Source: Patescibacteria group bacterium
Lineage (GTDB): Bacteria; Patescibacteriota; Patescibacteriia; GWA2-46-9
Direction: 5' to 3'
NCBI GenBank assembly: GCA_041660005.1
Contig: JBAZXG010000001.1
Location: 158,565-222,564 of the forward strand
Length of the DNA stretch: 64,000 bases
The translations under genes were made by a program, and so were the position numbers. The first letter of the stretch is position 1. Every line of letters starts with the position of its first letter. The notes under the pieces are model-generated. The model made no database searches. It was not told where the DNA came from and saw only the letters and a program-made list of their open reading frames with translations. Below, one piece after another: positions 6,661-48,800 of this stretch.

Positions 6661-6740
6661 GACTTGTTTTACGGTTTATGAAAATGTACACGCCGGACCT
6701 TCTACTCGCAGGGAGGTACTATTTTGCAAGGAGTGTACAC

Positions 6741-7196
6741 ATGACGACCACATCGAGTGCGCAGCAGGCTTCAGCACCACGAGCGAGACGGCGGTCACTG
6801 ACCGACCACGAAAAGGAGGTCCTTCTCCTGGTCTGCGAAGGACTCACCAACGCGAGAATCGCCTCCAATCTGGGGGTGGGGCGAGAGGCGGTCAGGTCCG
6901 CGCTCAAGCGGATCTTCCGCAAGCTCGGTGCCGGCAACAGGACGAGGGCGGCCGCGCTCTTCGCTCAGCAGGAAGGGGAGCAACGGGACCCTGAACGTCA
7001 GAAGCCGAGACTGACCGCGCGAGAGCTGCAGGTTCTTCGCCTCGTGCGCGACGGACGGACGAACAGCGAGATCGCGACCCTCCTCATGGTTTCCAAGGAA
7101 ACCGTGAAGTCCGAACTCAAGCGCATCTTCCGCAAGGTCGGCGGCAGTAACAGAACGCAGGTGGCGGTACTTCTCACCAGAAACGGCTGGATCTAG
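6741..7196 (+). CDS. Transcriptional regulator consisting of two tandem LuxR/GerE-type HTH domains (GC-rich islet)
   Basis: Two copies of L(T)xxExxVLxLVxxGxTNxxIAxxLxVSxxTVKSxLKRIFRKLG; AAGGAG SD before ATG 6741; ~63% GC. Confidence 0.6.
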   Translation: MTTTSSAQQASAPRARRRSLTDHEKEVLLLVCEGLTNARIASNLGVGREAVRSALKRIFRKLGAGNRTRAAALFAQQEGEQRDPERQKPRLTARELQVLRLVRDGRTNSEIATLLMVSKETVKSELKRIFRKVGGSNRTQVAVLLTRNGWI

Positions 7197-15562: not shown

Positions 15563-15953
15563 AAGGTATTGACCCCATAGAAAGCCCTAGACTCTTAAGT
15601 TCGCCCACGGGCGAGTTGAGAAAGACGGCTCGGCAGAGCTCCGCAAGCAGCAATTTACACCATTTTGTGCGTACGCACAAAATGGTGTAAAAATAATAAA
15701 ATACAAAATCACTAAAAGTAATCAGCGACCACGCCCCAAGGGGACGGGATGTGTAATGGTGATTCCACTTCGCCGAGTCAAACTCACCTCCTTCGCTTAA
15801 GCTTCGGACGGTCAAGGACCTCCTTCGCTCCCACTTCGTATCAAACTACGGCGGGACACAGCAATGCTACGGACGGTCAAGGACCTCCTTTGCTTAAGCT
15901 TCGGACGGTCAAGGAGCTACGCGGGATATTTTTGCTCACCCCCAACAATTGCA
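15563..15953. repeat. Composite repeat-rich intergenic region (palindrome + B-module + three copies of acggacggtcaagga(c/g)c units)
   Basis: Direct reading: ctcctt(c/t)gcttaagcttcggacggtcaagga twice, acggacggtcaagga three times; shares motifs with 20088-20193 and 60930-61013. Confidence 0.6.
15656..15689. repeat. 34-bp perfect palindrome TACACCATTTTGTGCGTACGCACAAAATGGTGTA (copy 1 of 3)
   Basis: Sequence equals its reverse complement; flanked by T-run and A-run. Confidence 0.85.
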
Positions 15954-17039
15954 CTAACGTTTTTTAAGCGTATCGCTTGATATCACGCGGTCGTAACGGC
16001 GACCGTTGAAAATTATTGTGGGAATTTTAATGGTACGAATTTGTTGCTCAACGACCGCACGGTGTTCTTTAATGATTTGAACCACTTTATCCGAATGTGC
16101 CATTTCAGTAACGCGCGCAATGGTCGCTTCATCATAGCCAAAAGTCGGCAACATTTCTTGCAGCTTATGTTCGGCTTCAGTTTCGCTGTAGAGCGTATTA
16201 AACTTTACCTGCATCTGAACTCCGTCACCGTCTGCACCCAGCAATATTGTCTCAAGTAGTTTCCAGTCTGCGGGCGTCGTCCCATCAAGCTTCGAGGGTG
16301 GAACGAGTTTTACTGCTTCGAGATATTGCGCAATGAGATATGAGTTGGCAAATTTGTAACCACTCTTTTGCTGCGGATCAGGAATAGGATAAGCAATATA
16401 GGTTAGGTTGTGCGTATGCTCAAAGTCAGCTGCTTTAATATTATTTAATAACGAAGCGCAATAATGGCATCCCGGATCGAGAATTTCTAGCGCCGTTATT
16501 TTTTGATTATCAAAAGGGGCATAGTACGTGCTCTCCGCCGTCGTGAAGTCAGCAGCATTCCAGCTCCGCAGCCGATTCGGCACAAGACTCGTAGTGTTCG
16601 CTACGTTCACAAACGGCCGAGCCGCCCACGATGCCAGTTGTCCTTGCTGAAACGATTCAAACAAATCAAGATTCTGTGAAGGAACGGCACAGGCTTCTCC
16701 TGCTAACGAGCAAGACTCTGCAGCCTGCGGATTGCAGGTATCATAAACAAAGAGGTTAAGCCCCGAAACCGCAACATATATAAGACTCCAAATGGATAAA
16801 CCAACAAAGACGAGGGCGAGCCAATTTGACCACCTTAAGAAAAAACGTGCGAGGAGTGGTGAACGTCGAACCAGTTTACCGGCAATGATACCTTTAATTT
16901 CTTCGTCAAAATGAATATCGCACGGCCGAAAAGTAAGGCGGCGGCCAACACAATACCAAGCTTTTTTAGCAAGCCCCCGATAATAGGCAGAGAATATACC
17001 CAAAATGAGAAAGACGATAAAAGCGGCGATGCAAAACAT
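15954..17039 (-). CDS. Membrane-anchored thiol:disulfide oxidoreductase, DsbA-like thioredoxin-fold domain (CHYC) fused to N-terminal 2-TM Cys-containing domain
   Basis: LDPGCHYCASLL CxxC motif in C-terminal half; two TM helices and paired Cys N-terminally. Confidence 0.6.
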   Translation of the reverse strand: MFCIAAFIVFLILGIFSAYYRGLAKKAWYCVGRRLTFRPCDIHFDEEIKGIIAGKLVRRSPLLARFFLRWSNWLALVFVGLSIWSLIYVAVSGLNLFVYDTCNPQAAESCSLAGEACAVPSQNLDLFESFQQGQLASWAARPFVNVANTTSLVPNRLRSWNAADFTTAESTYYAPFDNQKITALEILDPGCHYCASLLNNIKAADFEHTHNLTYIAYPIPDPQQKSGYKFANSYLIAQYLEAVKLVPPSKLDGTTPADWKLLETILLGADGDGVQMQVKFNTLYSETEAEHKLQEMLPTFGYDEATIARVTEMAHSDKVVQIIKEHRAVVEQQIRTIKIPTIIFNGRRYDRVISSDTLKKR

Positions 17040-17042
17040 ATT

Positions 17043-18254
17043 CTAAAATGCTTGAAGGGTTGATGAAATAATTTTTACAACACGAGAAACATCGGCATGA
17101 GTATTTTGAAGTCCAAGAGACAAACGTAGAAGTGGAGGCAATTTTAGTACTTTTTGCAAATAATAATGACAGCAGAAATATCCGCTCCGCGCCATAACCC
17201 CTTGTTCTGATAGCATGAGCGAGAGGCGATGCGCGTCAGCGTTTGGAAAAGAAAAAGCTACCACAGGACTCGCACTGCTATTCACAAGATTAATCGCCGG
17301 AATTGTTTTTAGCTCATCCAAAAAAGTTTGAGACAGCTCGCGCACATGCACATCAATTGCTTTATTACTCGGACGATATTTCGATAGCCACTCAAGAGCA
17401 GCAGAAAAACCAATGATGCCAGCCCAATTTTGCAGCCCCGGCTCAAGCCGAGTATGAAGTTCACCCTGTTCGTCAATGAGTGAATACGCAAGCTCGGAAA
17501 CGTCGCTCACCATCCCGCCGCCAATAAAACTGATATCGAGATTCTCGAGTAAACTTTTTTTGAAAACAATAAAGCCAAGACTCGGCCCGTACATTTTATG
17601 CGAAGAACCGAAGAGACAATCAAAATCAACGTTGGCAAGGAGTGATCGGTGATACACCATAGACTGCGCTGCGTCGAGGAAAAGAAGCCCACCCGCGGCG
17701 TGCGTATCGCGAGCAAGGTCCGCAACGTTCACACACTGTCGCCCATCAACGTTTGATGTCGTGCTAACAAGAACGACGCTCCGTTCAAGTTGATTTTTAT
17801 TGTATGAAAGTGCGCCATCAGCAGCTCTCTCAAGCACGAGCCGAGACAACCCATACTTTTTTGCCACCGTAATCGTCGGCAGAAAAACAGAGTTATGCTC
17901 AATTTGGGAAGTAACAATATTCTTGAACCGGTCAACCTTGAGCTGCTGCAATACCAGGTTGATACCGTACGTTGTATTTAAAGTAAAAGCGACAGCATAT
18001 TCATTCGCCGATTTTCCAAGAGCGTCCAATAACCGACGTCGGGCAATGCTAACCGCATCGTCAACCCGTCTCCCCCACTCATATTTTACGCGACCACCAC
18101 AGGCGTTGTAATTCTTGTAATAATCAATCTCGGCGTCAATAACTTCCTGCGGCCGCAGTGTTTGGCACGCCGAATCAAAATATAATTGTGTCTCGTCAAG
18201 ATATGCAAAACTCGATGTTTCTGTATGTTGTCGAGAACGAGTGCCGAAAAGCAT
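17043..18254 (-). CDS. Class V aminotransferase-fold PLP enzyme (cysteine desulfurase-like)
   Basis: YFDSACQT (cf. YLDSAATT) and SSHKMYGP PLP-lysine motif. Confidence 0.7.
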   Translation of the reverse strand: MLFGTRSRQHTETSSFAYLDETQLYFDSACQTLRPQEVIDAEIDYYKNYNACGGRVKYEWGRRVDDAVSIARRRLLDALGKSANEYAVAFTLNTTYGINLVLQQLKVDRFKNIVTSQIEHNSVFLPTITVAKKYGLSRLVLERAADGALSYNKNQLERSVVLVSTTSNVDGRQCVNVADLARDTHAAGGLLFLDAAQSMVYHRSLLANVDFDCLFGSSHKMYGPSLGFIVFKKSLLENLDISFIGGGMVSDVSELAYSLIDEQGELHTRLEPGLQNWAGIIGFSAALEWLSKYRPSNKAIDVHVRELSQTFLDELKTIPAINLVNSSASPVVAFSFPNADAHRLSLMLSEQGVMARSGYFCCHYYLQKVLKLPPLLRLSLGLQNTHADVSRVVKIISSTLQAF

Positions 18255-18471
18255 TTGCGAAAATCAATGATATCTTACATTGAGCATATCAAGAATTGAC
18301 CATTATTTCAAGCATATTTGATTACATAATACTGTAGTCTTTTGTTGTTTTTTGTTGTCGCAATAGTGTGCAATGTTTGCATAAATTTATACCTTTTAGA
18401 AAGACGACGTCCGGGCGGCTGCAGTATTGCAACCGTCCGGACGCATTTCGACTGTGGTGGGGTTTTCGGCC

Positions 18472-18720
18472 TCAACGGCAGGGATGGATACCGTGCTGCC
18501 GGAGCATTCTGCGCATCCACCCGATGGTGGATGGCTTCTGTTTTCGACGGGCAAGAGAATCTCGCCTACTTCCGCCCATCGTAGCGTTGATGTTGTGCTT
18601 CTGGCACTGCTCGACAAGCTTCTCGCGCGCCGTCGCAAGCTCGCGCTCTCTTTTCGTCGGGACGCCTACCCTCGGCTGGTAGAATACTCTTCCTCTTGAT
18701 CCAAAAATTGTCGAACTCAT
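18472..18720 (-). CDS. Hypothetical small basic protein in GC-rich islet
   Basis: AGGAGGA SD 7 nt before ATG; Arg/Lys-rich 82 aa; GC-rich; followed by inverted repeat 18406-18447. Confidence 0.3.
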   Translation of the reverse strand: MSSTIFGSRGRVFYQPRVGVPTKRERELATAREKLVEQCQKHNINATMGGSRRDSLARRKQKPSTIGWMRRMLRQHGIHPCR

Positions 18721-18882
18721 CTGGTCCTCCTGCGACCACAAACGTTACGTACCCCAAAATCGACGACGTGACTTTAACATAGACCCTTTCAACCTACAAC
18801 TTAAACTATGCTGGTTCTTATGGTACACTAATTAAATAGATACTTTGTTATAGTCTAGAGAATATTACCTTTTTATAAATTT

Positions 18883-19413
18883 ATGCCAAATCACCTTTCA
18901 TTATTACATTCCCTCTTTGGTGACACTGAAGAGCCAAAAAGAAGGAAGATACTACGCTCCATCAAAGCTAAAGCTGACTCCAAAAGAACAGTATCAGAAA
19001 AAACCGCCGATTGGATGACGGCTCATTTTGGGAGTATAACTTTTTTACTACTGAACTTTTTTTTGTTTATCGTTTGGTTAGTTATTAATTCTGAACGAAC
19101 AAAAGGACTTCCCAACTTTGACCCCTTCCCATTTAACCTACTAACAACAATCGTTTCACTAGAAGCAATTATTCTTGCTATTTTTGTTCTGATATCGCAA
19201 AACCGAAGTATGAAAGTGGACGACCTAAGAGAAGAGGTTCATTTACAGATAAATCTCATTGCTGAAAAAGAAGTAACAAAAGTAATGAAAATGATGGTTC
19301 TATTGTTAAAAAAACATGATATAGATGTATCGGAAGATCCTGAACTAAAAAAGCTTCTTAAGCCCATCAGTGAGGAAGAGATAGAGCGGATATTAGAAAA
19401 AGAAATTTTGTAA
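18883..19413 (+). CDS. DUF1003 family membrane protein
   Basis: DWMTAHFGSITFLLLNFFLFIVWLVINS...FDPFPFNLLTTIVSLEAIILAIFVLISQNR pattern. Confidence 0.55.
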   Translation: MPNHLSLLHSLFGDTEEPKRRKILRSIKAKADSKRTVSEKTADWMTAHFGSITFLLLNFFLFIVWLVINSERTKGLPNFDPFPFNLLTTIVSLEAIILAIFVLISQNRSMKVDDLREEVHLQINLIAEKEVTKVMKMMVLLLKKHDIDVSEDPELKKLLKPISEEEIERILEKEIL

Positions 19414-19517
19414 ACCATCTGTATTGCGTAAGGCGTACTGCGCAAGGATGATATTACACTTGCTATTTATCGCTATTTAGCATAGTATCAAGCAACTCAC
19501 CACTCATATAAAAATCT

Positions 19518-19931: not shown

Positions 19932-20015
19932 AGCGACTGAAGACTCCTGAAACGACCCCCGAGTTTTCGGTTTGTCGGCGTTTCTGAAAATTGCTTAACT
20001 TTCGCGTTACCGTTT

Positions 20016-20049
20016 TACACCATTTTGTGCGTGCGCACAAAATGGTGTA
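20016..20049. repeat. 34-bp palindrome copy 2 (centre gtgcgc variant)
   Basis: tacaccattttgtgcgtgcgcacaaaatggtgta. Confidence 0.85.
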
Positions 20050-20087
20050 AAAGTTAAAAGTCAATATAATCACGACAAGCTGACGGA

Positions 20088-20193
20088 GTGTAATGGTAAT
20101 CCCACTTCGCCGAGTCAAACTCGGCTACGAGGGATATTTTTGTCTTCTATATTGTAACCTCGCGGCAAGCCGACGAGGTATTGGGGACAAAAA
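20088..20193. repeat. Mosaic repeat: B-module (gtgtaatggtaatcccacttcgccgagtcaaactc) + C-module double hairpin (tttttgtc..cctcg-cggcaagccga-cgagg..gacaaaaa)
   Basis: B-module also at 15751-15785; C-module near-identical at 33521-33577. Confidence 0.75.
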
Positions 20194-20290
20194 TAAAAAA
20201 CTCGCGGAGCACCGCGAGAGTTAGCTGGCTGTCGAACGTACTGGATATACAGTCCAGAGTTCGACAGCCCGCCGCTGCGAAGGAAGCTTC

Positions 20291-20593
20291 CTACCCTGCC
20301 AGGAGTCCCTCCTTGAATTCCTCGAACGGGATAGCTTCCCCTTCGGGTTCTGCGTAATCGGGGTCAACGTTGTGCCGAGCACGGAAGACCGCAGTTGCAC
20401 CCGGAACCCATCCGGCTCGCTCTTCGACGGCGGTTTTCAGGGCCGCCCGAGAATGCACGTAGCATTCCCAAAGAGCAGCCTGTTTCAGAAACCGTCGACC
20501 ACCCATCCTGGGGTTGTCCCTGCTCAGGGCAACAACCCCGTCTCCAGTGACCGGTCCGGAGGTCACTATGTATCCTCGGCCGCTTTCATCCAC
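20291..20593 (-). CDS. Hypothetical protein in GC-rich islet (100 aa)
   Basis: Natural-looking translation on minus strand; downstream 10-bp stem with 22-nt loop (20228-20268) then tight terminator 20200-20218 + U-run. Confidence 0.35.
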   Translation of the reverse strand: MDESGRGYIVTSGPVTGDGVVALSRDNPRMGGRRFLKQAALWECYVHSRAALKTAVEERAGWVPGATAVFRARHNVDPDYAEPEGEAIPFEEFKEGLLAG

Positions 20594-21004
20594 TCCACTT
20601 ACCTCGCTTGGTTATTCTGTCCTGCTGGTCAAACCAGACGCGAACAGTGGGCACAATGGTATCCTTATAAAAGGAAATAATCAAGGAACTCCTTTTGATT
20701 TATTATTACTTTGGAAATAACACATTTGAACCTTGCCCAGTCAGACTGGGCGGAGGTTGTCTATTATATTTTTCTTCACAAACTGTTAGTACCATAGCCT
20801 AGACTATGGTACTAGATGAAAAATGGGACTTCTAGGTAAAAAATATAATATACTATTCGATATTCCAACATTCTTGAGAATGTGAGAATGACAGAAATAA
20901 GTCACTCCACAGATTTCGCTTGCAGTACCAACCCCTACAAAATCAGCAAGTCTTAGTGACTTTTATACAAAAAGTATTATACTAGCATTAAGTTACTATA
21001 GTTT

Positions 21005-21397
21005 ATGCACGACCAATATACCCCTGACGACCCTAAGGTTACAAAAAGCAGTAAGGAAGTGCGACCGCCAGCAAGTATGGATGAGGGTCAGGAAATAGGC
21101 AAAAGTGAAGTGCCAACGAAAGTTCTTAACATGGCGGAAATAATGCTAGGTAAGTTGGGTGGGCAGACTGACGGTCGTAATGTTACTATTACTCGCTGCA
21201 AAGTTAGCATTGATCAAACAAACAACAGTTGTTTTTATTCGATCAGGGGAGCAATTCACACCGAACAATTAAATACACGAACTGACAGTTCCGAACCTCA
21301 GTTTGATCGACCAACCGAAGCTGAAGTCATGATTACAACATATCCTCATGAAGTTATTGAGACGAAAGTTGTCAGTACGAAGATAGTGCACCAATAA
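21005..21397 (+). CDS. Hypothetical protein (130 aa)
   Basis: ORF ending right before strong terminator. Confidence 0.45.
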   Translation: MHDQYTPDDPKVTKSSKEVRPPASMDEGQEIGKSEVPTKVLNMAEIMLGKLGGQTDGRNVTITRCKVSIDQTNNSCFYSIRGAIHTEQLNTRTDSSEPQFDRPTEAEVMITTYPHEVIETKVVSTKIVHQ

Positions 21398-21430
21398 AAA
21401 ATACCTCGGCTCGCGCCGAGGTATTTTTCA
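21396..21430. terminator. Bidirectional intrinsic terminator shared by convergent genes
   Basis: aaaatacctcggc-tcgc-gccgaggtatttt perfect 13-bp stem with A-run and T-run. Confidence 0.8.
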
Positions 21431-21438
21431 AGAATTTA

Positions 21439-22163: not shown

Positions 22164-23363
22164 CTAAATTCGGACAAATTTAATTATCTCGGGTAATGCT
22201 TTGAGTACAAGGTCAATATCTTCTTTGGTAGTACTCTCGCCAAACGTAAAACGAACACTGCCGGCAATAGACGCTTTGTCGAGTCCTATGGCTTCAAGTA
22301 CGTGCGACGGCTCCCCTTTTGCACCAGCGCACGCTGCTCCTGTGCCAGCGTAAATTCCCTGCTCGCTCAAATACACAATGAGTCCTTCAGCGTCAACTCC
22401 GGGAAGACACACGTTGACGTTGTTCGGCAAACGCAGTGTTGCATGACCGTTTACCGTACTGCCAGGAATGACAGCAAGAATACCATTAGTAAAGTAATCA
22501 CGAAGAGACGTAAGACAAAGAATCTTTGCCTCGTGGTCTCTGCGCGCCAGCGTTAACGCCGCGGCTAACCCCACAATTGCAGGAACATTTTCAGTGCCAG
22601 CCACGAGACCGTGCTGTTGCCCGCCGCCATAAATAAGCGGCGCAAGTGTAATGCCACGTCGCACGTAAAGTGCCCCAACCCCCTTAGGGCCATAAAGCTT
22701 AGCGGCGTTCAAAGTCAATAAATCAACCCCTAGCTTTTCAACTGCCAGTGGTAAAAACGCGGCGGCCTGACAGGCATCGGTATGAAAATAAACAGGATGG
22801 AGACCTTGAGTAGTACGTTCTCGATTTACACGTTTCATCAATTTTCCGATTTCAACAATTGGCTCAATAACGCCAATTTCATTGTTGGCGTACATGACAG
22901 AGACAAGAACTGTTTCTGGAACAATCGCGGCAACAATAGCAGCAGGATCAATCCGGCCTTCACGGTCAACAGGTACGCTCGTAACACGCGCATCTTTGTC
23001 TTGAACAAGCGCACGCAACGGTTCTCTCACTGCATCGTGCTCAATAGTCGAAGTAACAACGTGGGGCACTGGCTGATGACTTGCGCGAACAGTGCCAAGA
23101 ACGGCCAGGTTGTCACTCGCTGTCCCGCTAGGAGTAAAGATGATTTCGTCTGAATGCGCGCCAAGTATTTCGGCAACAGCGCGCGCTGCTGCATCAATAA
23201 CTACACGACTCTGCTTTCCTAAACGGTGAAGGCTCGATGGGTTGCCATAATACTCGTCGTAATAAGGTGCCATGACCATGGCCACCTCAGGAGCGACCGG
23301 GGTCGCTGCCGCGTAATCAAGATAGATATTCGGCTCTTTCGCCTTTTTCTTAAAAAATTGCAT
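22164..23363 (-). CDS. Cysteine desulfurase, NifS/IscS type (class V aminotransferase)
   Basis: YLDYAAATPV, LNAAKLYGPKGVGALYVRRG PLP-Lys region, C-terminal active-site Cys loop GTGAACAG. Confidence 0.85.
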   Translation of the reverse strand: MQFFKKKAKEPNIYLDYAAATPVAPEVAMVMAPYYDEYYGNPSSLHRLGKQSRVVIDAAARAVAEILGAHSDEIIFTPSGTASDNLAVLGTVRASHQPVPHVVTSTIEHDAVREPLRALVQDKDARVTSVPVDREGRIDPAAIVAAIVPETVLVSVMYANNEIGVIEPIVEIGKLMKRVNRERTTQGLHPVYFHTDACQAAAFLPLAVEKLGVDLLTLNAAKLYGPKGVGALYVRRGITLAPLIYGGGQQHGLVAGTENVPAIVGLAAALTLARRDHEAKILCLTSLRDYFTNGILAVIPGSTVNGHATLRLPNNVNVCLPGVDAEGLIVYLSEQGIYAGTGAACAGAKGEPSHVLEAIGLDKASIAGSVRFTFGESTTKEDIDLVLKALPEIIKFVRI

Positions 23364-23503
23364 ATACGTTAATTGTACCCATGAACTATAAAGTAAGCTA
23401 TGGATTGTTTTACGTCAAAGACATTACATAAAAATCGGATTGACTTTTCATAATGTCTGAGATATTCTATCCAGTCCTAACCAAGGACAGGAGGAATCGA
23501 CCA

Positions 23504-23719
23504 ATGGCCGACGAAAACGCCCTTCTTTTCGCAGAGGAAGGGAGAAAGAGGATCCAACGCGCCATCACAGCACAAGCGGGTCGCGAGACTCACCTCGCCT
23601 GTGAGCGAGGTTTCGTCGATACTGAGACAGGTATCGGCGTAAGCGATACTGACATTCTCGAGGTACTCGAACGCGAGTGGCTTGATCTCCAGGTGATCCT
23701 GTCCACTCCTGCCGAGTAG
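23504..23719 (+). CDS. Hypothetical small protein (71 aa) in GC-rich cassette, C-terminus ..STPAE
   Basis: AGGACAGGAGGA SD 7 nt upstream of ATG; GC ~55%. Confidence 0.4.
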   Translation: MADENALLFAEEGRKRIQRAITAQAGRETHLACERGFVDTETGIGVSDTDILEVLEREWLDLQVILSTPAE

Positions 23720-23732
23720 CCGGAGAACCTCC

Positions 23733-23808
23733 GAACGCGCGCGACGAGAAGGGCGGGAAGATTGGCAACGAGCTGATCGACCCGCCCTCGTCTTTTCTAG
23801 CCACTTTT
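23733..23808 (+). repeat. 3' cassette module copy 1: ccgaacgcgcgcgacgagaagggcggg-[23-nt loop]-cccgccctcgtcttttctagc (terminator-like inverted repeat)
   Basis: ~70 nt identical to 24367-24445. Confidence 0.75.
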
Positions 23809-23938
23809 TAATCTTTTATTACTTTTTGAAGCCAAAAAATCTTCTCTAAAAAACCTTCATTTTGAGTACATCACTTAGAATTGACGTTTAAATGCTAAAG
23901 GACTAAGGTACTTCGGCACTACTTCATAGTGGAGTGTG

Positions 23939-24358
23939 ATGAGACAAAGCCGAAACTTTCGGCCAGCACCGGAGGAAACAGTGAAGAAACTCATACGCGA
24001 GATCACGTTCTCGACGAGAGGGGTGAGCGTTTCTCTCGCCAACGGAGGAGTGTTCGGCATTAACTGCCAAACACTCGACATGACGGTCGATGAGGGCGAG
24101 GGCGGTCTAAATAGCGCCGCACTGCCCCACGACAGCGTCATGCGGTTCGAGGTCAGAGATGAGGAGGAGTGCCACTGCGCCGCAGTCGAGGGTCCGACTT
24201 TGGGAGCCCACCTGTACGTGGTGTACAGGGACACGACAGGTGGTGAGCAGGGAATGGACATGGGCCTTTTCCCTTTCCGTGATACGCTTCTGCTCCTCTG
24301 TGAAGTGTTCAACAAGCTCAAGCCCGTCACGACTGTCCCCTCCACTCCGGCCGAGTAA
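23939..24358 (+). CDS. Hypothetical protein (140 aa) in GC-rich cassette, C-terminus ..STPAE
   Basis: TTGACG -35-like at 23881, GGAG before ATG; GC ~63%. Confidence 0.4.
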   Translation: MRQSRNFRPAPEETVKKLIREITFSTRGVSVSLANGGVFGINCQTLDMTVDEGEGGLNSAALPHDSVMRFEVRDEEECHCAAVEGPTLGAHLYVVYRDTTGGEQGMDMGLFPFRDTLLLLCEVFNKLKPVTTVPSTPAE

Positions 24359-24366
24359 CCTGAGGC

Positions 24367-24445
24367 CCGAACGCGCGCGACGAGAAGGGCGGGAAGATTG
24401 GCAACGAGCTGATCGACCCGCCCTCGTCTTTTCTAGCTACTTTTT
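24367..24445 (+). repeat. 3' cassette module copy 2 (identical to 23733-23808)
   Basis: Direct comparison of both copies. Confidence 0.75.
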
Positions 24446-24469
24446 AGTGCTTTCGTATTTTAGAATTTT

Positions 24470-24503
24470 TACACAATTTTGTGCGTACGCACAAAATTGT
24501 GTA
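24470..24503. repeat. 34-bp palindrome copy 3 (tacacaattttgtgcgtacgcacaaaattgtgta)
   Basis: Perfect palindrome; 2 substitutions vs copy 1, compensated symmetrically. Confidence 0.85.
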
Positions 24504-24512
24504 ATTTGATAC

Positions 24513-24549
24513 TTGCGTCACTCGGAAATGCAAATTATGATTTGCATTT
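24513..24549 (+). promoter_or_regulatory. Candidate suf operon promoter (-35 TTGCGT, 17 nt, -10 TATGAT) overlapped by operator-like inverted repeat aaatgcaaat-tatg-atttgcattt
   Basis: Motifs read directly ~95 nt upstream of sufB start. Confidence 0.45.
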
Positions 24550-24640
24550 CACTCGAATATTTGGCAATAACAATTTAATACTAACAACCGCAAAACACTT
24601 TGCCGGACAGGGCGTATATTGCTACACTTGGACACTGCCT

Positions 24641-26089
24641 ATGCCGCAAAATGAACAAGAAATTATCGCAAAAACAACGAGCAAATCCTACCCATTCGGC
24701 TTTCGCTCAGTGATTGCAACCGAACAGGCAGAACGAGGTTTGAACGAAGCAGTTATTCGGTTTATTGCGCAAAAAAGAGATGAACCGGTATGGCTCCTCG
24801 ACTGGCGACTCGCTGCCTACCGCCATTGGCTCACCATGAACGAACCAACCTGGGCAAACGTTGCCTATCCGCAAATCGATTATCAAGCAATGCACTACTA
24901 CGCGGCACCAAAACAGCGACAGGCACTTAATAGCTTGTCCGAAGTTGATCCTGCAATTCGCGAAACCTTTGAAAAACTTGGTATACCGGTTTTTGAACAG
25001 GAACGCTTAGCTGGTATAGCAATTGATGCAGTGATTGACAGCGTTTCCGTAGCGACGAGCGTTCACGAAACACTGCAAAATCTCGGCATTGTTTTTTGTT
25101 CTCTCGGTGAAGCCGTACAAAAATACCCCGACCTCGTGCGTCAGTATCTCGGCAGCGTAGTACCTGCGAATGATAACTTTTTTGCAGCGCTCAATGCCGC
25201 TGTTATGAGCGACGGCACTTTTGTTTACATTCCCACTGGCGTACACTGCCCTATCGAACTCTCTACTTACTTTCGCATGAATGCCGCCAACACCGGCCAA
25301 TTTGAACGAACGCTTATCATTGCCGAAGCCGATAGCTACGTCAGTTACCTTGAGGGATGCACCGCCCCGCGCCGAGAAGAAAACCAATTGCACGCTGCAG
25401 TTGTGGAAATTGTTGCTCTAGAAAACGCCGAGGTGCGCTACGCCACGGTACAAAACTGGTACCCGGGGGACGAACAGGGCAAAGGTGGCGTCTATAATTT
25501 TGTGACAAAACGCGGGCACTGCTTAGGGAAACGATCAAAAATTTCTTGGACACAAGTAGAGACGGGTGCCGCCATCACTTGGAAATACCCCAGCGTTATT
25601 CTGGAAGGAGACGAATCAGAGGGGGCTTTCTATTCTGTTGCGGTCACTACTGCCCGACAGCAAGCAGACACCGGCACCAAAATGATTCATCTTGGAAAAA
25701 ATACCCGCAGTACTGTCATTGCCAAAAGTATTGCCGCAGGAGAAAGTCGAAACACCTACCGCGGCCTCGTTAAGGTCGGATCAAAAGGCGAAGGCGCTAA
25801 GAACTACTCGCAATGTGATTCATTACTCATTGGCGGAAAATCATCTGCGCACACCTTTCCAACTTTGGAAAGCCGGCAGACAAAAGCGAACGTGCAGCAC
25901 GAAGCCACCACTTCAAAAATTAGCGATGAGCAGCTCTTCTACCTTAATCAGCGCGGTATTCGCACTGAAGATGCTGTTGGTTTAATTGTCAACGGATACT
26001 GCAGAGAAGTGATGAGCCGACTGCCAATGGAATTTGCCGTTGAAGCAAAAAAACTGCTCTCATTAACGCTTGTGGGTGCTGTCGGTTAA
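24641..26089 (+). CDS. sufB: Fe-S cluster assembly protein SufB
   Basis: N-terminus aligns with SufB ([28 protein letters not shown]); length ~482 aa; followed by sufC. Confidence 0.9.
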
Positions 26090-33482: not shown

Positions 33483-33893
33483 TTACCCCGCCCCAGAGGG
33501 GACGGGGTATATAATGGTATTTTTGTCTTCTGTGTTGTAACCTCGCGGCAAGCCGACGAGGTATTGGGGACAAAAAATAATGCAAGCTGCGTCCACCTTA
33601 TCCTCTACAAAGTGCACACCCTCATGTTCTAAGAGTTGACGTTTTCTTCTGGCGCCTCCGCTGTAGCCGCCCAGTTCTCCATTAGCACGCACTACCCGAT
33701 GACAAGGTATGGTGGTTTTTGCCTGCGAACCTCCTAAAAAAGCCGGGTACGGGTTTTTAGAAAGCGCACTACCGACCGCTCGAGCAGCATTCGGAGAGCC
33801 AACAGCTCGGGCGATCCGTTCATAAGTAGTTACCCGACCACGCGGCACACCAACGACGGCTTGCCATACCCGCTCAGAAAACGAACGTTCCAT
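33483..33893 (-). CDS. ogt: Methylated-DNA-protein-cysteine methyltransferase (MGMT/Ogt DNA-binding domain) with C-terminal extension read through a dispersed repeat
   Basis: TYERIARAVGSPNAARAVGSALSKNP...IPCHRVV active-site motif; last ~33 codons are the C-module repeat. Confidence 0.8.
   Translation of the reverse strand: MERSFSERVWQAVVGVPRGRVTTYERIARAVGSPNAARAVGSALSKNPYPAFLGGSQAKTTIPCHRVVRANGELGGYSGGARRKRQLLEHEGVHFVEDKVDAACIIFCPQYLVGLPRGYNTEDKNTIIYPVPSGAG
33488..33577. repeat. Repeat copy: ccccgcccc-agag-gggacgggg hairpin + C-module double hairpin
   Basis: Near-identical to 20136-20193; related hairpin at 15733-15748. Confidence 0.75.
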
Positions 33894-39855: not shown

Positions 39856-42800
39856 CTAAGGTGATGACGGTGGCGTTAAAATATTAACAATGGCACCACG
39901 TAACCTATTTGTTGACGCATCAACCGCAGAGGCATAGATAATATCTCTTGAGAGATAATTAAGCGTCAAACCATGGTAGTCACCCTGGACGGTAATCACT
40001 GGTATGGGTGCTGTCCAACCTGCACTTACCCAAGTCGGATCGTTTGTGCTTAACACCGATCTACGATACTTAATCGTTGTCGTTGATTGAGTAGTAGTAC
40101 GCTCTGCATAAGCAATGTAAAGATAGCCGCTTCGAGAATCTAATGCTAGCGCTACACCTTGGAAACCCCCTCCTGCAACACCAGTAATGTTGGACCCAAC
40201 CACCGTTCCGAATGTACTACTTTTTGTCCGACGCTTAAGTGCGATAAAGTCATCGTTGCTAACTACCCCCTGATCTTGTCGATAGGCAACGATACTTTCT
40301 CCTGTTGTTGGATTTGTTACGGCACTGAACCCGTCACCCGCATAGCCGGTCATAATAACGTTTTCTGCCGCAGTCAAAACCGGCTGTTCTGACCCCCAAG
40401 AGGAGGTTGCGTTCGGACCAACCCACACGCGCGCATTTAATGTTTTCGTAATGGAATTGTAATGATACAAAAGCATTTTCCCCGTGGCATCATCGGACGC
40501 AAGCGGTACCAACTGCGGTGCTTCGTTGTCGGTTTCTGGATAAGGATTATTCGTAATCCGCGAGCATGCATTTGAACTCAAAGGACACTGGTCACTGAAG
40601 CTGCTGGCGCTCGTCGAAACTTGACTACTCAGCGTGAAGTAATTCTTTCCGTCAACCGCTTTTGTCGCTGAAATCAACTGCGGCGCATCAACTATCCCCA
40701 CTGCGACACCGGTCGGTCCAAGAGTAGTTAAAGTATTGCCGACAGTATTGAGGGTCGAATACTGAATAGTGTTTGCATTATTGCCACCAGCTTGCGCACG
40801 ACTCGCCCCCAGGTGAATGAGGGAACCGGTATTAAACGGTGCAGGTGTCCACTGGTCATACCATGACACAATATGGCGACAGTTAGCCGCAATATCAACT
40901 GATGCTGCCCAAGTAAATCCAGTTCCACCACGAGTTCCCCGCACGTACTGACAGGTATTGTTTTTTCCGGTATAGAAAAGATACCCATTGGTTGCCGAGG
41001 AGAAGACGGCGCGCGGACTGGTGCCGTCATTGTAAGTAGCGGTCACATTCGTAGCGGCTATGTCCTCATTGGGCCACCCAGCAATCCAAATATCAACCGA
41101 ATTACTGACCGTTTGCCCAACACCGTTTACTGCGGTCACGGTATAAGCACCGCTACCGGGTATCTGCTTTGTTCCAGATGCGGGCCAGCGCGTACCAGTT
41201 ATTCCAGAAATAGAGCCAGGATTTATTTCGTACGAACTCGCACCAGTTCCACCGCCCCAGGTAAATGCTAATAAAGAATTGGGGGCACAAGGAGCAGAAA
41301 CATCTAAACAAGCAGCATTATATTGACTTACAGTACAAGAATAAGTTGTACCATTGATAACGGTACTTCCACCACGGTTACTCACGTTACAGTTTCCTCC
41401 TTGAGGACCAATGACAAACAATGTGACAGGCTGCGGTTTTGTGACAAATTTTGCGGTCACCGTTTGTTCACCCGTCATAGAAATAGTACAGGTAGGACTT
41501 GCGCCAGCACTCGTACATGCACCACCCCACCCCTGGAAAGTACCGCTATTCACTACAGAAGTAGCGCGAAGCGTAATGGAAGAATTTTTCAAATAATTTT
41601 CCGTAAAACCGTTTGAAACGCCATCATTTGCCGTCGGTGTTGGCCAACCCGCCGGCGCACTCTCAACAACGACATTACCATTTACAACAGGAGGATTGGG
41701 AAATGTATTATCTATCTTCTGCAATGTCAGTTGCTGCACCGCTTCAAACGTTGCCGTGACAGATAGAGAACCACCGGCAGCCGATGCTGAGAAATTACAC
41801 CGATTTCCTGTTGCCGAAGGACAATTCGTCCAGCCGGTAAATTGCGCACTGCCGTTCGGCGTAGCAAGAAGCACCACTGCATCCCCTGGATTAGGGTTGA
41901 AAGAACAGGGAGTCATGGGATCGGACGAGCTCGGGTCATTCGTACAATTGCCGGTTCCTCGCGCTGTTGCATAACCGAGGCGACCCAAACCTGATCCGCT
42001 CACAATCAAATTCACGGTTGGTCGTTTCGAAACCGTTACGCTATCGGTAGCAGTCAGTGAACCATAGCCCTGAACCGTAATGGTATAGGTTTGACTTGTA
42101 TCAGCACCCAAACTCACGACTACCGATCCTTGCGCGGATGACACATTGTAACTCGCAGGCGGAACATTGGTGAAACTACTGATGCGCACAAAGTCGGCGA
42201 CAGGTGTTACGTTCCAATTCAGCGTCTCACTGCCAGCTGGATCAATAAATACACTACTGGCTGACGGATCTGAAGCTGGCGTGAGGGTTACGCTCGGGGC
42301 TTGATGTACGGTCACCGTTACGCTCTTTTGATCAGGTGCTCCAACGCGACCCGTTGCCGTAATCTTGTAGGTCTGGCTAGTACTCGCCGTTGCCTGCTTC
42401 GTACCACTCGCTTCTGGAGTTACAACACCAACCCCCTGGTCAATCGCTACCCCGCCAGAAGTTGCGTCCGTAGTCTCCCACCGAAAAGTTATGTTGTCTC
42501 CGGCAACAACATCTGCTGAGGCGCCGAACTGATTGTTTGGCCCAGCCACTTCAAACTTTGTCACCTTCGCTGGTTTTACAATCGCTAACGTGGTTGTCGC
42601 TGAAGCAGATTCTCCTGGACCGCTGATGTTCAAGGTATAGGTAATATTTGTCGGTGCGTTATTCGACGGACAGTCATGTACGGGGGCGGCTGCGGCATTT
42701 CCAGAAATTGTACGATCAAGGGAACCGTCGTCAGCATGCACAGTAATAGTACGTGTCGTTGGAGCTGCTCCGGTTTCTGTCCATGTTAAGTCACTGCAAT

Positions 42801-45800
42801 CACGATTTTGAATGAGACTCGGTGTTGCGATAAAATTATTTATGCCGCTCGGAACATTCACGGTAAACGACACACTCTTTGTTGTTGTTCCACCAGGGCC
42901 AGTCGCGGTAAGCGTTAATGTTGTCATCCCCATCTTGGCAACAACAGTACTGCTGCCGTTTGGTGGAAGTTCTGTCATATTTACACGATCTGCAACGTTA
43001 CCGTCTGAAGTCAATAAAATATCAGTCGCATTGGTGGTGGTCCAGGAAACTGTTATTAGTGCTCCGTCGATGTAACTTGTGCCATTGAGTAAGCTCAGTT
43101 CTGCCGTTGGTTGTGCGGCAGTCAAATTAACTTGCAAAGTAACCGTTCTCGTCACTGTCACACCTTCACAACGAGTACCATTTTCGACACCAGTACAACT
43201 ATTCACCCAACCCCCAAACGTGCTGCCGACTTTCGGAAAAATCTCCACATCAACACTTGTATTTGCATCAAAAGCAAGTGAACAGGTGTCGTTAATTGAC
43301 GCACACGTTTGACGACCACTACTGGCTGTCACCACAACAGTCGCGTCCCCTGCTTCGCTACTGTTCAGCACTTGCAAGGTTGATACGTTTCGGAAACTTT
43401 GGGTGACAATCTTCGGTGTGCTCATAACCACCGAGCAGGCGCTCTGCCCGCTACAGGCGCCGCCCCAACCACCCAATGAGAAATCAGCGTTATCTAATAC
43501 TGCTTCAAGTAAAACATTTGTGTCGACGTCATAAGCAAACTCACAGGTCGCTGATACACTAGCAGGCTTCACGCAAGTATCAACGACCGATCCGCCGGAC
43601 ACAAACCGAACCTTCACCCGCCCCCCACCTGAACCTGTCAGCGTCAACTGAAGGGGCTTCAACTGAGGGTTTGGAGGAATAATGGTTCCGCCACCATCCA
43701 TAATGGGACCGGGTGGAGGAGCGGGCAAACGATCACGCACCGCAGTATCCGTCACCAGACAAAGGCGATCGCCACCAGTGACTTGGTTGAGTAGAGCCGG
43801 AAATGGAGTAAACACACTTTCCACAAAAGAGCAGAGAGCATAATCCTGACCCTGCCCTTGGCACTTCTCACCGGTCGGACACTGGCTGTCAACAATGCAT
43901 GCCTGCGCAGTTGTCGTCGAACAACGGCCATAAGCGCTGTACGTGTAGACGTGTGTTTCCGTAAGTTGAGCAGGATCAAACGACCACGGTACATCAGGTG
44001 GCGGTTCTACTTTTGTTATTTTTTCTTTAGCTGCATCCAGCGTCGCAAAGTGAGAGGCATATGTTTTAGAAACCTCATCCCAACATGTATTCGAATCATG
44101 TTTCAGCATAGCTGTTCCTAATGTGCTTTCAGTTCCACCGGCTTCACATGCAGCAAAAACACCAATAGGATCCTGCGGCAGTTGTCGACCAAGTTCGTTA
44201 CCTAATGTTGCCACCCATGACGGCCAACGGCTCGTACTGGTGCCAGTTACATAGGTACCCGCGGCTAATAATGGATAATTTGTTGTTCGATCTGCTGGCC
44301 GCTGACACGAGGACGTTACGGTCTTTGTCACGTTGCTGACATCCGTCGCGTCAACATCACCATCAGTATCGGTATCTGCACCGCGGCAGTAAGAAGGAAT
44401 ACTGCCGGGGTTTGCCCGATACCACTCTGTGAGAGAAATATCATAGCCATTAATAACACCATTACAGTTTGCGTCCCCCGGTGCACCAGGAGTAACCGCG
44501 GGACAGGAGGACCCATACTGATAGGCGCTCAAAGTCGTTGACATGTTGACGACGTCGCTCAACCGTTTCACGTCTCGAGTAACCTTGGACTTTGTGTTTG
44601 CGCAAACATATCCACTACCACAGTCGCTGTTAAAAATGCACTGCTTAACGACACCGCAGGTATTGCCACTACCGCAATCACTGTCTTGAGTACAGGCCTT
44701 GCTATTATTGTTAGAACAAAAACGAGTAACCTCTGCGCGACCAGTAGCCTGTTCCCTGCAGTTACCCACGGTCAAGTCATCAATGTTAAAGATGAGATTT
44801 TGTACCAGCTGGTTATAGACATTCTGTGTCGTGGCCTGCGCTCCCTGGTTGTAGGAGAAAATGTAAACGTTTGTGAAGAACACAGGATCGCTCACACCAT
44901 CTCCATTAACGTCAACACCAGAAGTGTTCGCTGCACCAATATAAATGGTGCGACCATCCCGAATAGCTGGGTACCCATCGATTACTAAAGATTCTGGCGC
45001 ACCTTTACTAAACGGCTGCTCAGCGTACCACTGGCTCGGCGTTAAATGCCGGTCATTTCTTACCACTCGAACACCAATAGCATCCGGATCAGGGTGCGTC
45101 GGATCAATAGTCGGGGCCTTCAAAATCCACTCCGCCAAAATGCCGAGCTGATTTGCACCGGCCGGTGCATCAATTTTTGTATTCGAGAAGTTAGGTAGTA
45201 GCTCCGGAACACATGAATTACCAGCGCCGCACTGTTTATCGTTAGCACATGATTTATTCTTATCGTTCGAGCAAACACTTCGGGAGGTGTCCTGACAGTA
45301 AGTCGTATAGAAATTCGTCGGGCTGTCCCCCGCCGGAGGCGGACCATCTTGCAACGGACCATTGTCCCACGGTTGGCGACACAGCATGAAAGTAACCGGC
45401 ACTCTGTTACTGCCCATGGTGTCACTATCGCTCCCTAGACTCGCCGATACATTGACGAGCGCAAAACGCGTACGATTGTCTGATGGTTTATTGGCAAATG
45501 TTGTTTCAAGTTCAGGAGTGGTTGTGTTGGCTAAGGAGAGTAATGGCAACGGATCTTCCTTTGACCAAACATAGTTTGCGCTCAATGCCTGGCCAATAGC
45601 ATCCACTGCTGTTGCCTGATAAACGTGTTGGTTACCGGTTCCTGGTGCAGAGTTCTGGTCTTCAGGCACTTCCCCCGTTGTTGTCTGCCGACAGCCGAGC
45701 TTGACGCCACCAGTGTCAGAACTGCAATTACAATGGTCGCCGTAGCAGGCGAACAGATCGTACGGCTGGATAAGCGTTCGCGGTTGGCTTATCGACATTT

Positions 45801-48800
45801 CCGTAGAAAGTACTGGTGCAATGTTGACCTGAATATTATCAACCTTGCAAATGTGATTGCCAACACCGGGCGGTGTAGACGCTGACGGGTCTGGGAACTC
45901 CTGATTCTTGTCACCGTCAAGCGCAATTCCTGCGGTACTTCTGGCTCCCCCTGTTGGATCTGTGGCGTTTTCGCCGTGCACAACCACACGATACTTAAGC
46001 TTTTTATCGAGTAAGGAGGATACGCTAATAATTGCTTTCGTTACCGGCGAAGACCCGTCTGGGAATACCGTACTCGCCAAAACTTTTGTTCCCAAAACCT
46101 TGCACCAACCACTGCCTGCGGCTGCTCCAGCCTCGTTCAAGAACAATCGACGCACAAACCCGAAGAACTGACTCATGGGTGTCGCTTCAGCAACTTTAAG
46201 ACTTTCTTCCAAGTTGCAGTCTGGCAAGCCATCTGCGTTAAGTTCTCCGACATTATCTAACCATTCGAGACTGGTGTTTTGCTCAACACTGGTCCGATCC
46301 ATCGGTTGACTAAACATAACCGTAAAGGCAGCGTTCCGACAAATGGTTCCGTCAGCTGGAGACTCGGCACCTGTAATTGAAGTGACCCACGGTCGTATGC
46401 CACAGCATCCTCCCTTATTCACCGCAAAACTGCAGAAGAGATCATTGCCTGTACCGTCACCATTGTCACAGGAAACGTGAGAGTCGTTGCTGCATTTCAA
46501 CTGCGCGTTACAAGTGCCAACCGGGTTACCACTACCACAAACATTTAAACTGAGACCAGACGCATCAACATTGCATTGGCTGCTTGTTGAACAGGCGCGC
46601 TTCAACTGTTTTGCGCAGACGTGAGGAATAAGGGAAACACTGTCTACTTCAACACCAGTTGGAAGTTCGAGCACCAAAAAGAATTTATTACCAGTAACCG
46701 CTGACCCGAACGTAACCGTTCCGCTATGCGCTGACCACTTGTTCGTCGTTGTAACAACTCGAGGGTCATCGCCAATAAAATCCACAAACGCTAATTTATC
46801 CAAAATGTTATCTGACTTTGCTAAATAAACGCGTACTCTCTCAGCGCTACCCGGTCGGCGTACCGCAAAGGAAAAATCATATGCCTGGTTCGCAACCGCA
46901 TAGGGCATATCAATGAACGTTACGAGTCCCTCATCGAATGGACACGTCGTCGTATGACAGTCAGGCTGGCGATAATACTGACGGCCATCAGCGGCGTTGC
47001 CGGTTGTCAAAACGGTGCTGGCATACATCTTGGTGCTGTCCGTATCATCTCCCCAACCAGTCAACGGATCAGTACTACCAGCTTTAGTAATTTCAAAACT
47101 ACTATTACCAATAACGTTCTGTGTTGCACTAATACAAGCTTGCGGCGCGATAAATCCGCACTGCAGGGTCAGCGTACTCTTGCCAATAACCGCACAATCA
47201 CTGGTTGTTGTACATTTTTTGGGCTGATTATCACAGGTATCTGCTGCCCCATTACCATCGCTGTCAATCGTGCAGAGGCCAACACTCGCGGTAACGTCTG
47301 TGGCACATTGATAGGTGGGTGCTACAGAACAACTTGGTGCCTTGCCAACGGCTGTTGCAACCTGCCTGGGATCAACATAGCTTCCCACTACCACATGGCC
47401 GGAACTATCAATCTGCTTCAACACGTTATTGTTGGTTATGGTAGCAACATCCGCGTCAGTACTGTTCCACCCATAATCATAGCTAATGGCGGCCAAGCGC
47501 TCACCCGTTGCATTGCAAGAATCTGGCGCTCCAAAGGGCTGCGCTACGATATCTTCAGTAGCACCGATGGTGCGCAAGGTCGCTTTATCAGGAATGTTGA
47601 TGACGCGATCAACCGCACAAATGGTTGATTTCGTTTTAAATACCCACGAATAAGCATCAATAGTATTTCCGTCAACGTCTTTCTCTTTATAATTAGTTTC
47701 GAGCGATTTGCCTTCTTCACTTCTGATATCTTTCGTTAAAATAACACGATAGTACGTTTCTTTTTGAAGGTATCCGTTTGCTGCGGTAAAGCTAACTTGA
47801 TACCGTTTTGGTGTCTCTTCCTTTGCTGGAATAACAATATAGATTGGCTCCGTAATACCAATTCTTTCTGTGGTCGTTTTGTCACTGATTATGCAATCCG
47901 CATTTGCACATTTGTAAAGCTGTACACTGTCAGTCCATACAGGAGCTGCTGTATAGGTAAACGTGCTCGCAGTTAACGGACGAGAAAATACTGCCCCGAT
48001 TGCGGCATTGAGACAAGCGGCATCGCACGACGGGAAAGGTTCAATTACTTTGGGTGCTTCAAAAATAACGTTCACCCGACACTCGCCCACCCGCGCCGCA
48101 GGATCCGCGGGCGAGGCTGCTTTAACTTTCGTCGTACCCTCGCTAACGGCAGTTGCCGTGTTATGGCAACCGGTGAGCCCTGGATCAACTGATGCCACCA
48201 AAGCGCTCGACGACGACCAGGCAACGCTGCCAGACGGGCAAGACAAAATGTTACAATTGGCCGCCTGCAGACCAGCGGACAAACTCTCTTGTTCATCTTT
48301 TGCGGTCAGCTTGTGAGAAGACGGCTGACAAGAAAGCGAAGCAACGGCACAAGTGTCAGACTTTGCTTGAAAACGCCAGATGTAGTCTTTGTCCGGAGAA
48401 ACTCCCTTGTCGCTCTTTACCGCTTTCGTCACTCGCGCCTCATACCAATGATTCAACGTAAAACCACCAACATCAGCAGTAAACCCACCATTTTCGATAT
48501 TCAAATTGTCCGTATAGGTAAAGAACTGTAACGCGGCTGGAGAAACACCGGGTTTCGGCTGCTTACAATCTGGGTCACTATCACAATCAGCCACAACAAG
48601 AGCCGTTTTTGGTGTTGCCACGGTATCAATTGGGGTTGTAAAGCGAACAGAAACTTGTGCGTTGGTGCAGGCATCGACTGAACCCTTCCACGGGCTCGGA
48701 CTCTGTGTTGAACTGCTGGTCCAAGACAAATTAACCGCGTCAACATCAAAACCAGCTTTGGGTAACTCAATAACTACATAGAACTCTTTTGCAGTATAGG

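Follow-up and report, generated by a model that had tools for sequence, protein, structure and literature searches.

How do two neighbouring genes that encode unrelated proteins come to share their last codons, a stop codon and a terminator-like hairpin? The question is raised by a locus in a metagenome-assembled genome (MAG) of a Patescibacteria group bacterium (GCA_041660005.1), from which we analysed a 64,000-nucleotide stretch of contig JBAZXG010000001.1 (hereafter the window; coordinates are window coordinates). Between a nifS-like gene and sufB lie two small open reading frames, ORF1 and ORF2, and each of them ends in a copy of the same module, which begins inside the coding sequence. 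We consider it probable (about 0.6) that a 3′ end with its terminator was duplicated locally, that a second gene entered the slot between nifS and sufB, and that the core of the module was kept identical by recency or gene conversion.

Results

Two genes share a 3′ module

Self-BLAST of the window aligned 23702-23816 with 24341-24453 as a direct repeat (116 nt aligned, 91.4% identity, one 3-nt indel, E 3.8e-38), and a repeat finder returned the pair 23731-23825 and 24367-24461 (95 nt, 93%). The module thus delimited (copy 1, 23702-23825; copy 2, 24341-24461; both on the + strand) comprises the last five codons, the stop codon, a 3′ untranslated region (UTR), a hairpin and a T-rich tail. Within it lies a perfect core of 71 nt (23731-23801 in copy 1 and 24367-24437 in copy 2, + strand), which extends to 80 nt if one mismatch is allowed; start to start, the copies are 636 nt apart. 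The core holds the hairpin (23743-23792 and 24379-24428), followed by UUUUCU (23793-23798 and 24429-24434). Used as a pattern, the 50-nt hairpin gave exactly two matches in the 64-kb window and none in 100 shuffles. A preliminary description of this DNA had reported an identity of ~70 nt between two copies, starting at 23733; the identity is real, and its first coordinate was 2 nt off.

The same description placed the upstream limit of the similarity within the last five codons, which the ORF translations and self-BLAST bear out. The leftmost 18 nt of the repeat encode the final five residues and the stop of ORF1 and ORF2, both on the + strand, and both proteins have the C-terminus STPAE (codons TCC ACT CC(T/G) GCC GAG TA(G/A)). 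The copies differ at two positions in this coding part, and both differences are silent (CCT/CCG, TAG/TAA). Upstream of 23702 and 24341 the similarity stops sharply.

The core is flanked by all 12 substitutions and the indel, with five substitutions and the 3-nt indel in the left 29 nt and seven substitutions in the right 24 nt. The edges of the module are thus 17-29% diverged between the copies, while the core is perfect. Random placement of the 12 differences over 124 columns would leave an uninterrupted run of at least 71 nt with p ~2e-4. Given this uneven spread, the core is either more recent than its edges, as a gene-conversion tract would be, or more constrained.

ORF1 and ORF2 are unrelated orphans

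ORF1 (23504-23719, + strand) encodes 71 aa, ends in TAG and has a GGAGGA Shine-Dalgarno sequence at 23490-23495, 8 nt upstream of its start. A consensus scan placed a promoter-like site at 23440-23468 (+ strand; TTGACT, 17 nt, TATTCT), as a sequence match only. NCBI calls ORF1 as WC817_01060, a 71-aa hypothetical protein of the Patescibacteria MAG, and its sole database match is itself. ORF2 (23981-24358, + strand; JGI call P0001) most likely encodes 125 aa from a GTG preceded by GGAGGA at 23971-23976, and ends in TAA; its longest form has 139 aa, from an ATG at 23939. A weak promoter-like site at 23881-23909 (+ strand; TTGACG, 17 nt, TAAGGT) was read by eye, and was not listed by the consensus scan, with only a 3/6 match in the −10 hexamer.

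Both genes are GC-rich, as had been noted before (57-58% GC in both versus 47.6% for the window). Their GC content by codon position (0.68/0.42/0.60 for ORF1 and 0.61/0.42-0.44/0.69-0.72 for ORF2) is low at the second position, as is typical of genuine coding sequence. In ORF2, a population single-nucleotide polymorphism (SNP; 24226 C>T, window versus JGI contig) is synonymous. Because GC at the third position (GC3) is far above the 0.44 of the window's long genes, ORF1 and ORF2 look foreign or young.

Neither ORF1 nor ORF2 has a family match in Pfam, PHROG or PADLOC. In a word-indexed search of 5.8e9 protein clusters each matched only itself, a full HMMER pass over 1.84e9 representatives returned no homologue of ORF2 but ORF2 itself, and neither ORF region matched phage or plasmid DNA. 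The two proteins had been called otherwise unrelated, and the comparisons agree: BLASTP gave no alignment between them, 262 of 500 shuffles reached the same Smith-Waterman score once the common tails were removed, and the similarity of the DNA upstream of the module is not significant. Homology over the full length of both proteins was thus looked for and not seen by BLASTP or Smith-Waterman. Single-sequence AlphaFold2 models (two helices for ORF1, pLDDT 70; mostly beta for ORF2, pLDDT 37, low confidence) are weakly consistent with different folds.

The module core has the anatomy of an intrinsic terminator

Folded as + strand RNA, the hairpin at 23743-23792 has a predicted energy of −30.7 kcal/mol. 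As − strand RNA it reaches −26.1 kcal/mol, the weaker fold being due to two G-U pairs that turn into C-A mismatches. The hairpin is long and interrupted, with about 19 pairs and two internal loops. Its stems are those of the preliminary description, but the 23-nt loop drawn there pairs internally (GAUUGGC/GCUGAUC, including two G-U pairs) and leaves an apical loop of 5 nt. The stem starts 23 nt after the stop codon in copy 1 and 20 nt after it in copy 2; UUUUCU stands directly 3′ of the stem in the sense orientation, and more T-rich sequence follows. The fold z-score of the 131-nt region is −2.4.

By its predicted structure, the core has the anatomy of a Rho-independent (intrinsic) terminator, with both a GC-rich stable stem-loop and a U-tract immediately 3′ of it, and each copy would end the transcript of its own gene. 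A simple terminator scan, which allowed only loops of 3-8 nt, did not list the hairpin. Rfam returned no family for the module at the gathering threshold nor at E<=1, and none of the terminators of the window's other GC-rich genes is significantly similar to it.

The repeat is very unlikely to be an assembly artefact

For a repeat that exceeds common k-mer sizes and comes from a MAG, a chimeric join or a repeat consensus entered twice has to be considered. The same arrangement is present, however, in the NCBI MAG, in JGI contig Ga0172379_10104396, which has both module copies and matches the window over 2185 nt except for one SNP, and in ENA contig k141_677445 (k=141), which runs from nifS through ORF1 and copy 1 into ORF2. 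In addition, a Logan unitig (SRR18595301) ends at 23760, exactly 30 nt (k−1) into the core, as expected where de Bruijn assembly merges two left contexts at a true repeat. The whole module (~120 nt) is also shorter than a typical read. We regard an artefact as very unlikely, and as the least probable of all the explanations weighed here.

The module was found at this locus only

A genome-wide search for further modules had been suggested, and the searches that were made returned none. No further copy was found in the window or in the closest sampled relative (see below) by blastn-short or nhmmer --max. In the GTDB representative genomes (596 Gb), the stem pattern with a free loop matched only two generic actinobacterial terminator hairpins; a looser pattern, with the stem bulge free, found only this locus among JGI metagenome contigs; and the loop sequence was not found in viral contigs.

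The locus differs from that of the closest sampled relative

The slot has conserved borders. On the left is the nifS-like gene (22164-23363, − strand), a class V aminotransferase (cysteine desulfurase) with 66% tblastx identity to the syntenic gene (L009 8142-9341, annotated as Pfam Aminotran_5) of the closest sampled relative, Candidatus (Ca.) Uhrbacteria CG10 (GCA_002793855.1). On the right is sufB (24641-26089, + strand), the first gene of sufBCDS-nifU. The window's SufB is 100% identical to an NCBI/JGI SufB entry and 79% identical to that of Ca. Uhrbacteria, the next matches being at about 68%. Common to both genomes is the gene order ABC-F, zinc-finger protein, Fe-SOD, nifS-like, sufB-C-D-S, nifU, comEC, prfB, htrA, nrdR, ftsZ, ftsA, which is interrupted by gaps of wholly different content at 15566-19460 (ABC-F/zinc finger), 19932-21436 (zinc finger/SOD) and 23370-24614 (nifS/sufB). 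In the relative, the nifS-sufB slot holds an unrelated 169-aa ORF (L009 9416-9925; PFET01000005.1), which is not GC-rich and has no precomputed Pfam match on record; neither the module nor the palindrome described below was found in that gap. ORF1 and ORF2 are lineage-specific occupants of a slot that differs between the two genomes.

The slot lies directly upstream of the suf operon, which is essential, and of the conserved promoter of sufB, and ORF1 and ORF2, arranged head to tail, point into sufBCDS-nifU. The terminators would shield sufBCDS-nifU from read-through. Exact-protein look-ups for a version of the locus with one gene only returned solely contigs of the same arrangement. ComEC is encoded in the window, consistent with DNA uptake.

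A palindrome element abuts the module

Copy 2 of the module runs into palindrome element PE3 (24438-24517, ~80 nt), which contains a perfect palindrome (24467-24504) and matches 15642-15720 in reverse complement at 87.5% identity. The left A/T-rich flank of PE3 doubles as the tail of copy 2. By eye, where the two module tails differ, copy 2 mostly agrees with the element copy at 15642-15720, whose flank the tail of copy 1 seems to repeat in degenerate form, cut short close to where the palindrome starts. Because the tail of copy 2 runs into a complete element and that of copy 1 is degenerate, the duplicated segment would have been taken from a context of gene end, terminator and palindrome element, with one breakpoint at the edge of the perfect palindrome. 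Replication tends to stall and to switch template at such palindromes, and palindrome-induced template switching may be linked to the breakpoint of the module's duplication.

The 38-nt perfect palindrome itself, TTTTACAC(C/A)ATTTTGTGCGT(A/G)CGCACAAAAT(G/T)GTGTAAAA, has three copies within 9 kb (15654-15691, 20013-20052 and 24467-24504), one in each slot that differs from the Ca. Uhrbacteria relative, and none in the 21 kb of syntenic sequence of the relative. Copies 1 and 3, which are inverted, have ~80 nt in common, including an A/T-rich linker that abuts a GC hairpin. The palindrome might serve as an operator or a recombination hotspot, or represent a repeat element. A 34-nt motif, GTGTAATGGTRATYCCACTTCGCCGAGTCAAACTC, lies downstream of the first two palindrome copies at a distance of 60-95 nt (15752-15785 and 20091-20122). 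After copy 1 (15786-15915) come three copies of CGGACGGTCAAGGACCTCCTT, which contains CCTCCTT and is anti-Shine-Dalgarno-like (16S rRNA 3′ end); this region folds strongly (z −4.4).

Other features of the window

Four more small genes have 56-61% GC in this 47.6% GC genome (5698-6180, 6678-7196, and 18472-18720 and 20291-20593 on the − strand), each with its own, different GC-rich hairpin terminator. The gene at 6678-7196 encodes a tandem LuxR/GerE helix-turn-helix protein, and the other three have no family match. This set suggests repeated acquisition of small genes from higher-GC sources. A 63-nt element with two intergenic copies (20135-20196 and 33518-33580, 95% identical) has a very strong predicted fold (z −5.3 and −3.8), in which UUUUUGUCUUC pairs with GGGGACAAAAA in an outer stem and CCUCG with CGAGG in an inner one; it has no Rfam match, was not found in viral contigs, and is possibly a small RNA or else a miniature repeat element.

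Relative to Ca. Uhrbacteria, 15954-18254 (− strand) is a two-gene insertion. It encodes a 361-aa protein without a Pfam match and a third class V aminotransferase (cysteine desulfurase-like) paralogue, beside the nifS-like gene and sufS. A single 4217-aa ORF at 39856-52509 (− strand), followed by bacterial TSP3 repeat proteins and a T4SS-pilin/Big_5 protein, is probably a giant surface protein locus typical of bacteria of the candidate phyla radiation (CPR). At 21353-21438, Rfam gave a match to the Brucella small RNA BSnc120 that falls below threshold (31 bits; gathering score, 114). Chance most likely accounts for this match, which falls on a 32-nt palindromic terminator, probably acting in both directions, that separates the convergent genes 21005-21397 and SOD.

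Discussion

The above results are best accommodated by a local duplication of a 3′ end with its terminator. A second, promoter-bearing gene would have entered the nifS-sufB slot and, simultaneously or a little later, ~120 nt at the 3′ end of the resident gene would have been duplicated, by a long target duplication, by a template switch or because the 3′ end of the neighbour was captured. One of the two reading frames would then run on into the copied five codons and the shared stop codon; on the present data, either gene could be the newcomer. The core may have stayed identical because the event is recent, or may later have been homogenised by a gene-conversion tract across the 636 nt that separate the copies, or by selection. 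Efficient termination would be of clear benefit because both genes point into sufBCDS-nifU. The preliminary description had read the common 3′ end as recombination at this site. That idea holds in so far as the event is confined to the 3′ end, given the unrelated proteins and the sharp limit of the similarity. Cassette shuffling, one of the two forms it was given, is not supported, with two copies at one locus and neither attC sites nor a recombinase found in our searches, whereas the other, duplication of the insertion target, is viable as a description of how two copies arose.

Several observations weigh against this scenario. The U-tract is short and weak, with four consecutive U, and termination is read from anatomy. 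The unpaired positions of the core (internal loops and the 12 nt that precede the stem) are perfectly identical, which is beyond the needs of a terminator. A flanking duplication of 120 nt is far longer than ordinary target-site duplications. Neither a closer relative nor an absence variant was found, and the ancestral state and the order of events were not observed. The count of two copies covers the 64-kb window, the rest of the MAG not being directly searchable, and the JGI assembly is fragmented, so the absence of others is not absolute. Finally, a rare SNP that distinguishes the copies might, in principle, have been lost to bubble-popping in de Bruijn assembly.

Because the identity of the unpaired positions exceeds what a terminator needs, another sequence-specific role of the core is possible. 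The core might then be a functional RNA or a protein-binding element under purifying selection, such as a 3′-UTR-derived small RNA or a regulatory or stability element, with termination only part of its function. Consistent with such a role, 71 of 71 core positions are identical, unpaired ones included, between flanks that are 17-29% diverged, the fold is strand-specific owing to its G-U pairs, and both differences in the shared coding tail are silent. We nevertheless consider it unlikely: Rfam offers no family even at the relaxed threshold, the z-score is only −2.4 for the 131-nt region, and the lack of a homologue in the GTDB representatives and JGI metagenomes leaves neither covariation evidence nor conservation beyond this genome, while a recent gene-conversion tract explains the pattern more simply. 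Another view takes the module for a small mobile element carrying a terminator, of the kind of miniature inverted-repeat transposable elements (MITEs), repetitive extragenic palindromic (REP) sequences or Rickettsia palindromic elements (RPEs), that landed independently at two gene ends and provided both with five codons plus a stop codon. There are precedents for palindromic elements inserting at gene ends or in frame, among them Rickettsia RPEs, Neisseria Correia elements and REP sequences with the bacterial interspersed mosaic elements (BIMEs) they form, and this genome has other short intergenic repeat families. The copies here are just two in 64 kb and adjacent, however, and no others turned up in GTDB representatives, JGI metagenomes or viral contigs. 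The two ends of the module are not complementary and thus form no terminal inverted repeats, there is no convincing target duplication, no transposase was found in the window ORFs scanned, and the tail of copy 2 belongs to another repeat, the palindrome element. We rejected a MITE- or REP-type repeat on these grounds, and a mobile origin in general seems distinctly unlikely.

Two tandem small orphan genes that each end in a ~120-nt imperfect-palindrome module call to mind the attC arrays of integrons, and the 636-nt unit between the direct repeats could excise as a circle. A site-specific recombination site (attC- or att-like), with ORF1 and ORF2 as cassettes and the recombinase encoded elsewhere, is less probable again. 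A regular-expression search of 23690-23840 and 24330-24475 found no attC core site (GTTRRRY or RYYYAAC) on either strand. The 46 window ORFs scanned with Pfam, a set that excludes some small ORFs and the 4217-aa ORF, include no integrase (tyrosine recombinase), transposase or reverse transcriptase, and the relative's syntenic annotation has no recombinase either. Each gene carries a promoter-like site, that of ORF2 being weak, and its own GGAGG Shine-Dalgarno sequence; there are two copies, with no third in the collections searched; and degraded similarity continues on both sides of the core instead of stopping at a crossover point. The integron attC reading was rejected for want of core sites and of intI/attI, and a literature search on integrons or attC in Patescibacteria gave nothing relevant. 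As attL and attR of an integrative element, the copies would enclose an insert of ~0.5 kb that holds only ORF2, and the core flanks are partly similar on both sides; this candidate was set aside, as was the template repeat/variable repeat pair of a diversity-generating retroelement, in view of only 15 nt of coding sequence, differences (T/G, G/A, G/T, A/G, T/C and an indel) that are not adenine-specific, and the absence of a reverse transcriptase among the scanned ORFs. More speculatively, CPR bacteria might have a hitherto undescribed process that inserts small promoter-bearing orphan genes at terminator hairpins lying between core genes, in which the module is duplicated on entry, the module and the 38-nt palindromes of all three slots are its marks and the enzyme is encoded elsewhere in the genome. 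Such hairpin-duplicating insertion would be akin to the repeat duplication of CRISPR adaptation or to attC-based cassette capture, and we think it still more improbable than a recombination site. A whole-gene tandem duplication in which the bodies diverged and the 3′ end was preserved is more doubtful yet. The units are indeed tandem, adjacent and in the same orientation, both with a TTGAC-type −35 element, but there is no protein or DNA similarity upstream of 23702 and 24341, the products differ in length (71 versus 125-139 aa) and, at low confidence, in predicted secondary-structure class, and with flanks diverged by only ~20-29%, equally old gene bodies should remain recognisable. This reading was accordingly rejected on the lack of homology over the gene bodies.

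A local duplication of the 3′ end would make this locus a small, clean example of how a gene that has recently arrived or been born in a reduced CPR genome acquires a stop codon, C-terminal residues and a terminator from its neighbour's 3′ end. It is a known kind of event, a local segmental duplication that supplies a shared terminator and gene end; no cassette system is revealed. The gaps between core genes (nifS/sufB, zinc finger/SOD and ABC-F/zinc finger) differ in content from the closest sampled relative, and here they hold small GC-rich orphans. With 71 identical nt in direct repeat on either side, ORF2 would also be easily lost or amplified through homologous recombination.

Among known systems, Rho-independent terminators share with the module a GC-rich hairpin followed by a U-run, in the sense orientation, after a stop codon and upstream of the next promoter. 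The module departs from them in its unusually long hairpin and short U-tract, its activity being read from sequence, and in the 71-nt identity common to two unrelated neighbours, in a repeat that reaches into coding sequence. Integron cassettes carry attC sites, such as the ~120-nt Vibrio cholerae repeats (VCRs) of the chromosomal integron of that species, and are mostly promoterless and expressed from Pc. The likeness lies in tandem, same-orientation small orphan genes, each followed by a similar ~120-nt dyad module; the module, in contrast, lacks R′/R″ sites, has no integrase with it, is present in two units that have their own promoter-like and ribosome-binding sites, and devotes 50 of its ~120 nt to the hairpin. 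REP and BIME sequences, enterobacterial repetitive intergenic consensus (ERIC) sequences, Correia elements and Rickettsia RPEs are palindromic repeats with tens to hundreds of dispersed copies, which act as terminators or enter coding regions. Like them, the module is a short structured repeat at gene ends that is able to supply a terminator and a few codons, although it has only two, adjacent copies and no defined element ends. The integration of prophages and islands duplicates gene 3′ ends, as at tRNA 3′ ends or, for phage 21 and e14, in icd. There, as here, a direct repeat of a gene's 3′ end flanks the inserted DNA, the upstream gene stays intact and the coding differences are silent; at the present locus, however, the insert is ~0.5 kb and without an integrase, and the downstream copy is not a dead remnant but is read in frame.

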